Shown here: piece after piece, positions 48,535 through 57,250 of the stretch
How positions within the stretch are numbered: position 1 is the stretch's first letter
Layout of the letters: each line of letters opens with the position of its first letter
Source: Saccharofermentanales bacterium
GTDB lineage: Bacteria > Bacillota > Clostridia > Saccharofermentanales > DTU023
Reading direction: 5' to 3'
NCBI GenBank assembly: GCA_041655695.1
Contig: JBBAEW010000001.1
Coordinates: forward strand, 30,999-94,998
Length of the DNA: 64,000 nt
Notes under the pieces: generated by a model
What the model saw: the letters and a program-made list of their open reading frames with translations, nothing else
Told to the model about the DNA's origin: nothing
The model's database searches: none
Translations under genes and position numbers: made by a program

Positions 48535-48694
48535 AGCCGGCCAAAGCTTGTCTGTTTCAGCGGTTGCCGTTTCTATTAAGAAACCTATGGAGATAAGGAC
48601 AAGGTTTTTTATCGTCAGCTTTACAATCAGCAAGGCAGGCCCTTCTTGTACCTCTCCGCCATTGGAAGATAATCGACTTATCAAACAAAATAAA

Positions 48695-48722
48695 GAGGGG
48701 AGCAAGCTCCCCCCTTTGTTTT
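48695..48722. terminator. bidirectional terminator between convergent genes
   Basis: GGGGAGC-AA-GCTCCCC hairpin flanked by A-rich sequence (AAAATAAAGA) on the left and TTTGTTTT on the right. Confidence 0.6.
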
Positions 48723-48755
48723 GGTGATGGCTTGACCTGTCAAGACAACAATTGT

Positions 48756-50042
48756 CTAAAAGAAGGTACTCTTCAAGAATGAGATGAAAGACCAAACACC
48801 GACGATTGAGAACGCAAAACCAACCGCAATCGTTAACCTATGGAACCAGCCGATAGCATATTTCCCCATGATTTTTTTACTTGTTGAAATATAAAACAAA
48901 GAAGCAATAATGAATGGGGTGAACAAATTGAGAATGCCCATCGCGATCATAATGACAATGAAAGGTGCAACGACCTTAGCAACCAGGGGGCCGAGCAGCC
49001 AACTGACCATAGTCAGACCTGACAGGATTTTGAATCTTGTGTCGCTGTGGATGTCTCCGTCGATCAACGCCTTTTCTTCATCACCTTTTGTTTTGAAGTT
49101 TAGCAGGTCAGCGACATAGTATCCTGTACCGAAACAAGGCGATACAGCCGTTGACCAAACTACCGCAAAGAAACCGAGAGAGAATAACCATTTGGCCGCT
49201 GATCCTCCGATAGGCGCCAAAGCGTTTGCAGCTTGGATTGCGTTTTGTACCGGAGCGGCACCAGGAGCGTGGAGGGCCGATCCGGCGAGCAGGACGCTAA
49301 CCGAGATCAAGCTGAATGCTACTCCAAGGAACATGATATTGTCCCATCTCATGACGGGCAGGTCTTCCTTTTTGAAGCCAGCCGCCTTGACCTGATAGGG
49401 ATAGAAAAGCATGGGTAGACCACCGATCGATCCACCAATTATGCCGGTCACCGCAATCAGGCTGCCTGCGGGTATCGTGGGTACCAGACCTGACAGCGCT
49501 TCAAAGAAATTGATTTTCACGAAGAAGATGTTGAGGACGAACAGAACGACCATGGCTCCTACAATGACTGATATCATAGACTTGATAAAGCTATACTTCC
49601 CTCGAAGAACCATGAAAAACAAACTGATAACCAGCAGAATCAGAGTAGAGAGGAAAGTTGAAAGATTAGGGAAGAAGACCTTAAATGCATCTGCCATCCC
49701 GACGGATACACCAATTACCGCCCCGATATTGCATACAACTTGCACCCACCCATTAACTTTTCCCCATCCCTTAAACACGTGCCTGTCGAGAGCTTGAAGA
49801 GTCGTTTTTCCAGTGACTACTGTTACCGTGCCTGCCATCATCGTAAGAGCGGCAAGCCAAACTCCTGACAGGGCCACAAGCCAAAGCAGATTGAGCCCGA
49901 ATCCGGAGCCGGCGAACAATGTCGAAGACATCGTGCCGGGCCCGATCTGAACCCCTGCTACTAAGGCGCTACTTCCGAGAGCCCTCAGCCAAAGCTGAAA
50001 ACTACTCCCTCTTTTCTTTGTGTTCAATTGCACCTCTGACAT
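48756..50042 (-). CDS. Nramp-superfamily-like transporter with non-canonical TM1 motif
   Basis: 428-aa polytopic ORF. LRALGSSALVAGVQIGPGTMSSTLFAGSGFGLNLLWLV aligns with the Nramp TM1 region, but DPGN is replaced by GPGT. Confidence 0.6.
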   Translation of the reverse strand: MSEVQLNTKKRGSSFQLWLRALGSSALVAGVQIGPGTMSSTLFAGSGFGLNLLWLVALSGVWLAALTMMAGTVTVVTGKTTLQALDRHVFKGWGKVNGWVQVVCNIGAVIGVSVGMADAFKVFFPNLSTFLSTLILLVISLFFMVLRGKYSFIKSMISVIVGAMVVLFVLNIFFVKINFFEALSGLVPTIPAGSLIAVTGIIGGSIGGLPMLFYPYQVKAAGFKKEDLPVMRWDNIMFLGVAFSLISVSVLLAGSALHAPGAAPVQNAIQAANALAPIGGSAAKWLFSLGFFAVVWSTAVSPCFGTGYYVADLLNFKTKGDEEKALIDGDIHSDTRFKILSGLTMVSWLLGPLVAKVVAPFIVIMIAMGILNLFTPFIIASLFYISTSKKIMGKYAIGWFHRLTIAVGFAFSIVGVWSFISFLKSTFF

Positions 50043-50086
50043 TTTTTGCCTCCTTTTGCTTAAGTGCTAATGTCACCTCCGGCTGT

Positions 50087-51106
50087 TTATTGGTAGCCTT
50101 TCACTATATTGATTAGGCGGCCCAATCTTTCTATCTCAACTTCTAAAACATCCTCAGCTTTCAACAAGATACTTTTTCCCGCGTACATGTGGTCAAAGAG
50201 TTTGTCAGTAGCGCTATAGCCGACGTTGGCTCCTTTGGCCATTCCCACGCCAGCGCCCGTTCCAGTGGCGATGACATCGCCAGGTGACAGAGTCGTGACT
50301 GATGATGCCGTTGCGATCAATTCGGCAACACTCCACACCATCAGATTGGTATTCGTATTTTGCATGATCTCGCCGTTTAGGTAGAGTCTGATTGATAGGT
50401 TGTCAATATCAGGAATAAACTGTGCAGGGGTTATATAAGGCCCCAAAGGCCCGAAGGTATCATTGCCTTTATTGGAAAACCAATCAAAATCAAAAGTTTC
50501 ATCGTGCCGTATCATGCGATCTCTAGCCGAGATATCGTTGTAGCAGGTGTAACCGGCTACATAATCAAGAGCTTTTTCAGCCGGAACATCTTTTGCAGAT
50601 TTCCCGATAACAATTGCCATTTCAGCTTCCCAATCCACAAAATTAGAGCGGGGTGTTAGCCTGATGGGGTCACCATGGCCAATGATGGTGTGCGTGCGGC
50701 CTTTGTAGAAAAAATAAGGTTCATGACCATCTTTTTTCGGTTTGGCTGCGCCCATTTCTAAAGCATGATCATAGTAATTAGAACCAGCATTCAGGATCTT
50801 GTCTGGGTATAGAACAGGAGGCTTGAATGCGATATCGTCCTCTTCGTAAACAAAAGATTCGGTACGGCTTGGGTTGTCATTGTAGAATCCTGCCATCTCT
50901 CCCAGAAGATTATTAAACAACTCCCATTCTTCCAAAATATCGAGCATAGTGTAGTTATGTTTAGCCTTGAATAAATCACGCTTGCCCGTTCTCATCTTGT
51001 AGTATTCATACCCACGGTTAATATCATAAAGAGAACTGTTGATCTCGATAACGGGGAATACAAATCCTCGGTGGTCGACTGTTGCTAGCTTAAATACAAG
51101 TGACAC
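50087..51106 (-). CDS. fumarylacetoacetate hydrolase (FAH) family protein
   Basis: ORF with GTG start behind AGGAGGG and a C-terminal FAH fold (VDWEAEMAIVIGK, YTCYNDISARD, LSPGDVIATGTGAGVG). Confidence 0.8.
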   Translation of the reverse strand: MSLVFKLATVDHRGFVFPVIEINSSLYDINRGYEYYKMRTGKRDLFKAKHNYTMLDILEEWELFNNLLGEMAGFYNDNPSRTESFVYEEDDIAFKPPVLYPDKILNAGSNYYDHALEMGAAKPKKDGHEPYFFYKGRTHTIIGHGDPIRLTPRSNFVDWEAEMAIVIGKSAKDVPAEKALDYVAGYTCYNDISARDRMIRHDETFDFDWFSNKGNDTFGPLGPYITPAQFIPDIDNLSIRLYLNGEIMQNTNTNLMVWSVAELIATASSVTTLSPGDVIATGTGAGVGMAKGANVGYSATDKLFDHMYAGKSILLKAEDVLEVEIERLGRLINIVKGYQ

Positions 51107-51207
51107 AATTTCCCTCCTGCTGTCTGAGATAATTTCATTTAGTAGCCTTACTTGTTATACATCTGTTCGCACTTGTCCTAAACAGACAGATCAGGCCTGG
51201 GATTGGC

Positions 51208-56400: not shown

Positions 56401-56525
56401 AATATGATAACTATAACTATTTATCACACCTGCCGACACAAAATCGGTTTTAGTTGAAATTCTATTTGTGTAAAAATTCAACCAAAATTAAGGTTGGGAA
56501 AGGCTCTCCCCTGTCGATAAGAGTA

Positions 56526-56870
56526 TCATCTTTCGATCATTTTATCAAGAATAAACAAAAAATAAAGCGTATCTTTCTCGATCGAAAGCTTGCTGAGAAA
56601 ATCAATGACCTTGCAGCCTAGGAGTCGCTCAACTTCAGCAGCGTGATGCTCTTGGCATCGTGCTTTGATAATCTTTCGAAGTTTACCTATCAGTTCGATT
56701 CCATCACTCGTATGAAGCAGGCTCGTCTCCAGGGGTGTGAAAATTCCATTGAACTCGACGACGATGTAGTTTTTGGTCACACCTACGTTAGTCTGGACGG
56801 GTCCCTTCCCCACATCATCCTTATAAAGCTTTATGAAGCTTTCCCTCAGTTGCACCTCAAGTGGCTTCAT
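56526..56870 (-). CDS. DUF2294-family small protein
   Basis: 114-aa ORF. The pattern DDVGKGPVQTNVGVTKNYIVVEFNGIFTPLE...GCKVIDFLS...LYFLFILD matches my recollection of the DUF2294 consensus. SD AAAGGAGG. Confidence 0.6.
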   Translation of the reverse strand: MKPLEVQLRESFIKLYKDDVGKGPVQTNVGVTKNYIVVEFNGIFTPLETSLLHTSDGIELIGKLRKIIKARCQEHHAAEVERLLGCKVIDFLSKLSIEKDTLYFLFILDKMIER

Positions 56871-57156
56871 TAAGACTACCTCCTTTCCGGTTTTTCCCAG
56901 CGGACAACGTGTTCACCGGCAATCTTGTTCCAGTTCGGGTCTAACAAGATGGACTGCGATTCTGTTCATATCATAACAGCAACATACAATTATCTTGTAT
57001 TTTCTACCAATTGCCAAGCAGCATCAGAGAGCTGTTATTTAGATTGTAGATGACTAATTCCTGTGTTTCTTCCATGTGTGGGTTTCCTTCAATATATCAC
57101 CCTATTTCAATATGCTTCACGGCAGGTCATCTTAGCCGGTCGCCGTACAGGTGTGC

Positions 57157-57185
57157 TTTACAAAGCCAGGTCTTCCTGATATCAT
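57157..57185 (+). promoter_or_regulatory. candidate sigma-70-type promoter of the str operon
   Basis: TTTACA-17 nt-TATCAT, 66 nt upstream of the rpsL ATG. Confidence 0.5.
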
Positions 57186-57194
57186 TTGTACTCA

Positions 57195-57220
57195 GTCGCC
57201 CGCATAGCGGGCAACTTTTT
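57195..57220 (+). promoter_or_regulatory. 5' leader hairpin plus T5 upstream of rpsL
   Basis: GTCGCCCGC-ATA-GCGGGCAAC (one mismatch) followed by TTTTT. Lies between the candidate promoter and the SD GGAAGGAGG. Confidence 0.45.
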
Positions 57221-57250
57221 GAGCAAATCTTTATGGAAGGAGGTGTGTTG

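Follow-up and report, generated by a model that had tools for sequence, protein, structure and literature searches.

The 64,000-nucleotide stretch analysed here, called the window throughout, comes from a Saccharofermentanales bacterium (Bacillota, Clostridia; assembly GCA_041655695.1, contig JBBAEW010000001.1, positions 30,999 to 94,998 of the forward strand). Between the last permease gene of an ATP-binding cassette (ABC) transporter operon and the str operon, it contains a low-GC island that encodes a molybdenum enzyme of the xanthine dehydrogenase (XDH) family, two paralogues of the fumarylacetoacetate hydrolase (FAH) family, a carrier related to Nramp and a small protein of the MpsC/DUF2294 family. 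An initial annotation, made from the letters alone, had marked the segment as an insertion with these seven genes, all on the minus strand and preceded by strong Shine-Dalgarno (SD) sequences. Matches to Pfam and NCBIfam models and inspection of the SD sequences confirm that description: the seven genes are intact, share the minus strand and have AGGAGG-type SDs. The island, its genes and the two adjoining host genes are the following.

47572-48534, plus strand: host flank, last permease of a Bmp-type (nucleoside-like) ABC transporter operon (Pfam)
48541-57140, no strand: the island proper, 8,600 bp of low-GC DNA, with edges taken from the empty-site contigs L010, L064, L067, L068 and L070
48756-50042, minus strand: Nramp-related carrier, 428 aa (Pfam PF01566, 157 bits)
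50087-51106, minus strand: FAH-family paralogue 2, 339 aa, GTG start (PF01557)
51208-52224, minus strand: FAH-family paralogue 1, 338 aa (PF01557)
52505-53497, minus strand: FAD-binding medium subunit, 330 aa, with a four-cysteine insert (PF00941)
53536-55794, minus strand: molybdopterin-binding large subunit, 752 aa from the ATG (PF01315, PF02738 and PF20256, all above cut-off)
55796-56329, minus strand: small subunit with two [2Fe-2S] clusters, 177 aa (PF01799, PF00111, PF13085)
56526-56870, minus strand: MpsC/DUF2294-family small protein, 114 aa (PF10057, 79.8 bits)
57251-57676, plus strand: host flank, rpsL, first gene of the str operon (rpsL-rpsG-fusA-tuf)

The sharp drop in GC content that had drawn attention to the segment was confirmed by windowed profiles of GC, of GC at third codon positions (GC3) and of tetranucleotides. 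GC is 0.449 for 48540-57240 and 0.580 for the remaining window; the 1-kb windows inside the island average 0.450 with a maximum of 0.503, those outside 0.580 with a standard deviation (sd) of 0.027 and a minimum of 0.499. The AT-rich codon usage noted earlier is equally evident, as the seven island genes have a GC3 of 0.40-0.54 against 0.63-0.81 in the flanking ABC, rpsL, rpsG, fusA and tuf genes, and everywhere in the island the 5-kb windows show a tetranucleotide distance 16-21 sd higher than the outside distribution. As had been proposed, the segment is foreign DNA that was gained horizontally; base composition and presence or absence among close relatives agree on this point.

Contigs of the same species were retrieved from metagenomes by searching for exact copies of three proteins, FAH1, EF-G and the adjacent permease, and are named by the NCBI entry "MAG: Saccharofermentanales bacterium" (MAG, metagenome-assembled genome). 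At this locus 14 contigs from several sequencing projects are occupied by the island and five are empty (L010, L064, L067, L068 and L070). Acquisition would have been open to doubt had all relatives carried the block; these five near-identical contigs lack it. They follow the window to about 48540 and pick up again at 57141, thereby defining both junctions, and the edges are therefore placed at 48541 and 57140. The start of 48540 given in the initial annotation stands, and its end, 57240, lies 100 bp too far, taking in the promoter-like site and leader of rpsL. In the empty allele the permease stop codon is followed by AGCCGG, a 23-bp filler (GCAGAGCAGAAGAGTCAGCTGTC) and then CGCCGTACAGG, which corresponds to the window from 57141 onward. 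The filler has no copy anywhere in the window, even when three mismatches are allowed. The features at the two junctions are listed below.

48528-48531, plus strand: two synonymous variants in the last two Arg codons of the permease gene; occupied contigs have C at 48528 and A at 48531, all empty contigs G and G
48535-48540, no strand: AGCCGG at the left junction, host sequence common to both alleles
57134-57139, no strand: second copy of AGCCGG, just inside the right end of the island
57157-57185, plus strand: promoter-like site of rpsL, TTTACA-17-TATCAT with TG, 17 bp right of the island edge and kept in both alleles

Over its whole length the island is invariant. Mismatches to the window number zero in 14 of 14 occupied contigs (8600 of 8600 positions in nine, an exact match over the covered part in five), while the host left flank of most of these contigs diverges by 1.5-2.8%; had the island diverged as far as the flanks, it would show about 198 mismatches, and none is observed. 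Three flank haplotypes can be distinguished. Haplotype A is the window's own and recurs in L002, haplotype B (L001, L062, L065 and others) is separated from A by 55 differences in 1978 sites, and haplotype C (L004 and L069) has 16-17 differences within 48138-48436. Haplotype B exists in both states, the empty contigs L067 and L070 showing 0 differences in 1978 sites from the occupied L001, L062 and L065. Among themselves the empty contigs differ at 12-23 of 1978 sites, and because of this diversity the empty state is taken as the older one.

The invariance extends a short way into the host. No difference among occupied contigs is found in the last 104 bp of the permease gene, and the variants at 48528 and 48531 are in complete linkage with the island. 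Leftward of the island the identical tract ends about 400 bp out in haplotype B and about 120 bp out in haplotype C, so that the left breakpoints vary with the background (about 48138 and about 48420) and fall inside the last 120-400 bp of the permease gene. Since the island is exact in all occupied contigs while the flanks differ by up to 2.8%, a single and very recent origin is indicated; and since a shared tract and linked single-nucleotide polymorphisms (SNPs) lie outside the island, with breakpoints that differ by background, homologous recombination through the flanks is the process that best accounts for its distribution. We regard it as very probable that this is a recent island that is spreading by homologous recombination in this species. 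The mechanism of acquisition had initially been called unclear; for the spread within the species it is now narrowed to homologous recombination through the flanks, with no integrase seen.

Other accounts of the same distribution fare poorly. That the block is ancestral and the "empty" strains are deletion losses is very unlikely: homologous recombination is able to remove islands as well as add them, and both states occur on flank haplotype B, but such a history would have to accommodate the foreign composition (about 13 GC points, z about 20), the zero diversity over 8.6 kb set against 12-23 differences per 1978 sites among the empty contigs, the presence in the empty contigs of 23 bp that the occupied allele does not hold, and gene relatives that all lie in other lineages. 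A site-specific mobile element that relies on a recombinase encoded elsewhere and inserted independently at the same site in each strain deserves equally little credence; the shared insertion point of all occupied contigs, the AGCCGG at both ends and an IS110 transposase beside a related cluster (contig L011, described below) could be read in its favour, but the identical tract runs 120-400 bp into the permease gene with breakpoints that differ by background, the two linked SNPs lie outside the island, and the island has no terminal inverted repeats. A chimera of assembly or binning, with the island coming from another organism, can be dismissed almost entirely, for although metagenome contigs break near the right edge (57264-57298) and two contigs of ERZ27247346 overlap by exactly k=141 from 57141, the left junction is spanned by 12 of the 14 occupied contigs and the right one by 124-158 bp in eight, across different assemblers and projects, and a break at 57141 is the graph branch expected where empty and occupied alleles co-occur.

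How the island first entered can be read in part from its edges. The AGCCGG hexamer is the sole direct repeat there, a microhomology with no clean target duplication, and apart from it and the FAH paralogy no long terminal direct or inverted repeats of the island were found. No tRNA target was found either, and neither the list of open reading frames (ORFs) nor Pfam revealed an integrase or transposase, so that the earlier statement on the absence of integrase, transposase, tRNA and long flanking repeats is borne out by gene, tRNA and repeat searches. Such hallmarks are frequent in genomic islands and not obligatory. Because a clean target duplication is lacking and the filler is absent from the window, the insertion is attributed to illegitimate recombination with replacement of 23 bp. 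In the sequence of events that we propose, illegitimate recombination would have inserted the island once, between the permease stop codon and the rpsL promoter, replacing the 23 bp, and the island-bearing allele would then have been copied by way of the flanking core genes into at least three diverged strain backgrounds.

The proposal that the island occupies the position usually held by rpoB and rpoC did not hold up. Neither gene is present in the 57 kb upstream of rpsL within the window, and where strains lack the island, rpsL comes directly after the gene of the nucleoside-type ABC permease. These two facts rule out a displacement of rpoBC by the island: the rpoBC-rpsL linkage was already gone, only 23 bp were displaced, and the synteny comparison suggested earlier, on whether the rpoBC-rpsL order is intact in relatives, shows permease joined to rpsL instead. 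The rpsL leader itself has a GC-rich hairpin (GCCCGCATAGCGGGC) and a T-run at 57198-57212 (plus strand), between the promoter-like site and the start codon, in both empty and occupied alleles.

Clusters with the gene order of the island and 54-75% identity to its products were found at three other places, listed here with their identities to the island where these are given.

L034, fermentation metagenome, 35% GC: MpsC 62%, FeS 62%, Mo 71%, FAD 54%, FAH 71-74%, two-subunit thiamine pyrophosphate (TPP) decarboxylase, aminotransferase, NhaC, YqeC, MocA
L011/L019, uncultured Clostridiaceae MAG, 36% GC: IS110 transposase, Mo, FAD, FAH, FAH, TPP_N, TPP_C, aminotransferase, NhaC, YqeC, MocA, YqeB
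L016, metagenome-assembled genome GCA_036789365.1, 44% GC: Mo 56%, FAD, FAH 64-66%, Nramp-like 68%

Judged from these relatives, which add a split TPP decarboxylase, an aminotransferase, NhaC and YqeB/YqeC/MocA, the island is best described as a reduced version of a larger module. The pathway had been thought self-contained; this is doubtful, the island being without the TPP decarboxylase, the aminotransferase, the NhaC and the YqeB/YqeC/MocA of L011 and L034. Neither a TPP decarboxylase nor a second XDH is encoded in the 64-kb window, and the only aminotransferase similarity in it is distant (28% identity to the L011 enzyme) and lies at 2103-3263, some 45 kb away from the island in host DNA. 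The protein search for a donor lineage that the initial annotation had called for returned low-GC Clostridia as the closest sampled relatives and no close donor, and the sequence comparisons place the donor in an unsampled lineage. An origin from a plasmid or phage found no support: plasmids yielded only matches of about 150 bp to 2Fe-2S genes, without any FAH of this subfamily, and nothing matched among phages. Mo homologues at 60% identity, for example in Lutispora, occur without FAH genes. In L011 an IS110-family transposase (111-1683) lies where the 2Fe-2S and mpsC genes would be expected, with a 76-aa ORF without family match left, and the element appears to have truncated the 5' end of that operon. 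Two contigs of the island host, L008 (SRR8925810) and L069 (SRR8925819), and one of the 36%-GC Clostridiaceae with the closest cluster, L012 (SRR8925788), belong to the same accession series; the two organisms probably share a habitat.

The molybdenum enzyme has the three-subunit architecture of the bacterial XDH family, with a Mo-pterin subunit (an a/b-hammerhead and two molybdenum cofactor-binding domains), a subunit with two [2Fe-2S] clusters and a FAD_binding_5 subunit. The top NCBIfam model of the Mo subunit is XdhA (NF043082), matched at 596 bits and thus below the cut-off of 780, which places the enzyme outside xanthine dehydrogenase proper. Its C-terminal GAKSVGE motif is conserved in five of five homologues checked, and the Glu of this motif aligns with a Glu of the alpha subunit of 4-hydroxybenzoyl-CoA reductase (4-HBCR); it may occupy the position of the catalytic Glu1261 of bovine XDH. 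The motif that begins with GGGFG continues as GGGFGERQ, the Gln of which presumably stands, in bovine numbering, at the position of the xanthine-binding Glu802.

Among solved structures the best match of the Mo subunit is 4-HBCR alpha (2e-94) and that of the FAD subunit is 1rm6_B (HcrB, 4.5e-38), with all four Cys of the [4Fe-4S] loop aligned; homologues in L011, L013 and L015 also have the four-Cys loop. The enzyme resembles HcrABC of Thauera aromatica (PDB 1RM6) in its three subunits and in the retention of the extra-loop Cys as well as in being its best solved match, but identity is only about one-third and the partners in the island are FAH enzymes and a carrier. The designation as a hydroxylase, given in the initial annotation, is not established, the FAD subunit having the [4Fe-4S] loop of the reductive 4-HBCR. 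That loop is matched as well by PaoB (5g5g_B), an oxidative aldehyde oxidoreductase, and by 5y6q_B, and because an oxidative enzyme matches too, the loop does not fix the direction of the reaction.

The enzyme may be reductive, a dehydroxylase or reductase like 4-HBCR, UcdCFO or 2,8-dioxopurine dehydrogenase, so that the island would serve electron disposal or detoxification; we hold this to be a possible alternative, though not a likely one. It is favoured by the four HcrB loop Cys, with HcrB the best match of the FAD subunit, by 4-HBCR alpha as the best solved relative of the Mo subunit, by the anaerobic host, and by the reductive XDH-family enzymes documented in gut Clostridia and other anaerobes, namely UcdCFO (PMC11760930) and 2,8-dioxopurine dehydrogenase (bioRxiv 10.1101/2025.04.24.650524). 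UcdCFO of Enterocloster is likewise a three-gene XDH-family enzyme of gut or anaerobic Clostridia, inducible and with an aromatic substrate, but UcdC is without the [4Fe-4S] loop (PMC11760930) and has no FAH partners, the comparison being one of descriptions. Against a reductive role stand the matches of the loop to PaoB and 5y6q_B and the 4-HBCR equivalog models, all scored far below cut-off (TIGR03194, 494 vs 995; TIGR03195, 174 vs 405; TIGR03193, 176 vs 258). In addition, no CoA ligase or benzoyl-CoA pathway gene was found in the island or in the related clusters examined, and the conserved FAH and decarboxylase partners suggest breakdown of a carbon skeleton.

It is improbable that the enzyme is an aldehyde oxidoreductase at the end of a route from an amino acid through a 2-oxo acid and an aldehyde to an acid. 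The L011 and L034 modules hold an aminotransferase and a two-subunit TPP decarboxylase, which would fit such a route, and PaoB-like FAD subunits with a [4Fe-4S] cluster are known in aldehyde oxidoreductases; yet the island has neither aminotransferase nor decarboxylase, the corresponding models score lower than those of XdhA and 4-HBCR, and the FAH paralogues would be left with no obvious role.

The two FAH proteins of the island are 67% identical to each other. FAH1 shares 75% identity with the first L011 paralogue and FAH2 75.5% with the second, and since each is closest to a different L011 paralogue, the duplication is old. Both match PF01557 at 212-214 bits and belong to a subfamily of proteins about 340 aa long, whose members share 56-75% identity with each other and at most 49% with proteins outside it. 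It is marked by an N-terminal segment of its own (about 100 residues) and by an inserted stretch of about 25 aa. The metal ligands E160, E162 and D191 and the dyad H114/E117 are invariant in the subfamily alignment (A1). The domain, the Glu-Glu-Asp ligands and the His-x-x-Glu dyad are shared with HpaG/HpcE, YisK (8SKY), L-2,4-diketo-3-deoxyrhamnonate hydrolase and FAHD1, but the island subfamily is distinct and every equivalog model stays below cut-off (TIGR02303, 163-177 vs 276; NF053535, 151-161 vs 500), so that none of these specific functions can be assigned. A scan of GTDB species representatives with the FAH profile returned 11 genomes, one Clostridiaceae and ten Alphaproteobacteria; the host locus was not among them, which proves neither an island-less representative nor a missing species.

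The neighbours of this FAH subfamily recur. Its gene adjoins a two-subunit TPP decarboxylase in about 10 related loci, in about 12 an XDH trio is no more than 10 kb away, and TRAP or ABC transporters, a RidA-like protein and a TRZ/ATZ-type amidohydrolase are also found repeatedly nearby. The linkage of FAH, XDH and split TPP decarboxylase occurs in two phyla, being found in Clostridia and in Alphaproteobacteria. A comparable set is known from the lumichrome operon, in which a TPP enzyme decarboxylates a heterocyclic acid and an enzyme like xanthine oxidase (XO) hydroxylates the product (PMC12746152). The families of that lumichrome/riboflavin operon (the XO-like LumJ, the TPP decarboxylase LumK/LumL, amidohydrolases and the unassigned FAH LumV; PMC12746152) are the same as in L011, L034, L017, L025, L028 and others. 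However, the operon is aerobic and actinobacterial and includes P450 and Rieske oxygenases, whereas the island has no TPP decarboxylase, and the likeness, one of protein families, is a possible lead.

The carrier matches PF01566 over residues 40-398 and aligns end to end with solved Nramps. The motif DPGN of the first transmembrane segment reads GPGT in the island protein, and in place of the A-x-x-MPH of the sixth it has GGLPM, with no MPH; GPGT or GPGS is found in the whole carrier clade (alignment A2). Scores on MntH models are far below cut-off (66.6 vs 430 and 30.6 vs 272.5), and the generic model NF037982, "Nramp family divalent metal transporter", is passed with 64.9 against 50. The fold and Pfam domain are common to Nramp/MntH and to the Mg2+ transporter EleNRMT (PDB 7QIA), but the metal-binding motifs are not, and these motifs mark the island protein as a member of an Nramp-like clade predicted to be without canonical metal-binding ability. 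The clade is tiny, with nine representatives at E<1e-30 among 1.84 billion. The two closest relatives are encoded in L016 (3645-4922, after the Mo-FAD-FAH genes) and L030 (2009-3988), the latter holding two tandem carrier copies after a NhaC homologue and an aminotransferase. Across versions of the cluster the transporter slot is filled by NhaC, TRAP, ABC or Nramp-like proteins. Within the island, parts of the carrier gene (49100-49550 and 49700-50000) reach 54% GC, and its GC3 of 0.54 compares with 40-47% in the other island genes; the island itself may be a mosaic of two sources.

No accessory genes for cofactor maturation are present inside the island. They are found in the host, starting with the feature given here.

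62754-64000, cut by the window end, minus strand: host YqeC-MocA fusion gene (Pfam; GC 0.596)

YqeB follows just beyond the window (the region is continued by L009, 5614-7906), and the whole set lies 5.6 kb from the island, downstream of tuf. On L009 the host maturation proteins score above their cut-offs (YqeC-MocA on TIGR03172, 116.6 vs 73; YqeB on TIGR03309, 323 vs 220). A 411-aa protein encoded after YqeB has a weak CofE/F420-ligase-like match. In relatives these genes are part of the module, with YqeC, MocA and YqeB inside the L011 cluster and YqeC and MocA homologues inside that of L034. Genes of the YqeB/YqeC/MocA type are markers of selenium-dependent molybdenum hydroxylases (PMC2276186, PMC11448449). 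The island enzyme is probably matured by the host YqeC-MocA and YqeB, and, going by the YqeB/YqeC gene neighbourhood seen within the 64-kb window and L009, it may have a labile selenium cofactor. With the selenium-dependent hydroxylases of purinolytic and nicotinate-fermenting clostridia and the E. coli XdhABC type (PMC2276186, PMC11448449, bioRxiv 10.1101/2025.04.24.650524) it shares XdhA as top model and the nearby YqeB/YqeC/MocA, but it differs from them in a sub-cut-off XdhA score, an HcrB-type FAD subunit and the absence of the purine-pathway genes ygeW/X/Y, ssnA and hyuA.

Taken together, a recent island of single origin with a reduced molybdoenzyme module as its cargo is, in our view, a probable explanation of the whole and the best available. 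As to function, an outline of carrier, molybdenum enzyme and FAH steps is put forward tentatively. The substrate would enter through the Nramp-like carrier; the molybdenum enzyme would add or remove an oxygen at the ring or a carbonyl of an N-heterocyclic or aromatic acid, with ferredoxin as its electron partner via the extra cluster; the FAH pair would act on the 2,4-dioxo or enol-oxo acid so formed, by hydrolysis, decarboxylation or tautomerisation; and the host would provide cofactor maturation and the missing steps. The earlier statement that the gene combination matches no described pathway proved right, and a literature search for FAH and XDH clusters in anaerobes found no papers.

Several points weigh against this explanation. 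The direction of the molybdenum reaction, the selenium dependence, the FAH chemistry and the substrate of the carrier are inferred from family membership and gene neighbourhood only. Because the island has neither the TPP decarboxylase nor the aminotransferase that go with the module elsewhere, its pathway in this host may lack steps or take another course. As for the source, among 5.8 billion proteins no Mo or FAH protein exceeds 72-75% amino acid identity short of 100%. The flank haplotypes are metagenome contigs, in which bubble-popping can mix strains into mosaics. Finally, the right-hand breakpoints are out of view, as the occupied contigs end at or before 57298. An exact-match search of JGI metagenomes with the rpsL leader gave 0 matches, and an exact look-up of the rpsL protein one contig only.

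Genomic islands and XDH-family catabolic clusters are known as such; what is new here is the combination of uncharacterised enzymes, the probable dependence on host maturation and the population signature. The island has been caught spreading in a natural population of an uncultured anaerobe, with exact edges, a "before" allele on the same background and visible breakpoints, which makes it a good model for gene-specific sweeps that proceed without mobile-element machinery. More speculatively, and rather against the balance of probability, the full picture may be that of an undescribed, largely anaerobic catabolic route for an N-heterocyclic or 2,4-dioxo-acid compound (a probably selenium-dependent XDH-type enzyme with a [4Fe-4S] FAD subunit, the rare FAH subfamily and, in the fuller clusters, a split TPP decarboxylase), served by an Nramp-fold protein that is devoid of the metal site and was recruited to carry the organic substrate, with the zero-diversity spread representing a gene-specific selective sweep for which access to this substrate was the driving force. 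The identity of the substrate would add a molybdenum-dependent, possibly also selenium-dependent, pathway to anaerobic degradation, and could give a first function to the FAH subfamily, to its DUF2294/MpsC partner and to the Nramp-like carrier.

The MpsC/DUF2294 protein is the conserved first gene of the module, with the 62% homologue of L034 at the equivalent place. Sequence searches gave no solved relative for it, a literature search on DUF2294 returned nothing relevant, and a single-sequence structure model was not used on account of its mean predicted local distance difference test (pLDDT) score of 51.6. Candidate expression signals in the island are the following.

48692-48717, no strand: bidirectional terminator-like hairpin within the island, past the end of the Nramp-like gene and facing the incoming ABC operon
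52484-52512, minus strand: promoter-like site TTGACT-17-TATAAT (11/12), before a 250-nt leader and FAH1; consensus match only
56989-57017, minus strand: promoter-like site TTGGCA-17-GATAAT, upstream of the mpsC-like gene; consensus match only

The spacer between the FAD and FAH1 genes (52225-52504, minus strand, 280 bp) holds, besides the promoter-like site and the leader, a 35-aa hydrophobic ORF (MEGTMETVKVAVVLASAGISLFETCTGFFFRFEGE), which is not conserved in L011 or L034. The spacer is also long in these two clusters (326 and 468 bp, respectively), and the long spacers contain no known RNA or riboswitch according to Rfam, at the gathering threshold or at E<=1.

Elsewhere in the window, minor GC dips to 0.51-0.53, far weaker than that of the island, occur at 11001-12000 and 40001-41000, the second covering a CAP-domain gene (cysteine-rich secretory protein family). 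Two large ORFs of 643 and 376 aa without a Pfam match (26281-29350, minus strand) adjoin an ABC ATPase gene at 29368-30312. An 872-aa ORF at 30862-33480 (minus strand), unusually long for PntB, shows a very strong PNTB match in three stretches together with a weak TPP_enzyme_M match, and adjoins an AlaDh/PNT alpha gene at 33872-35038.

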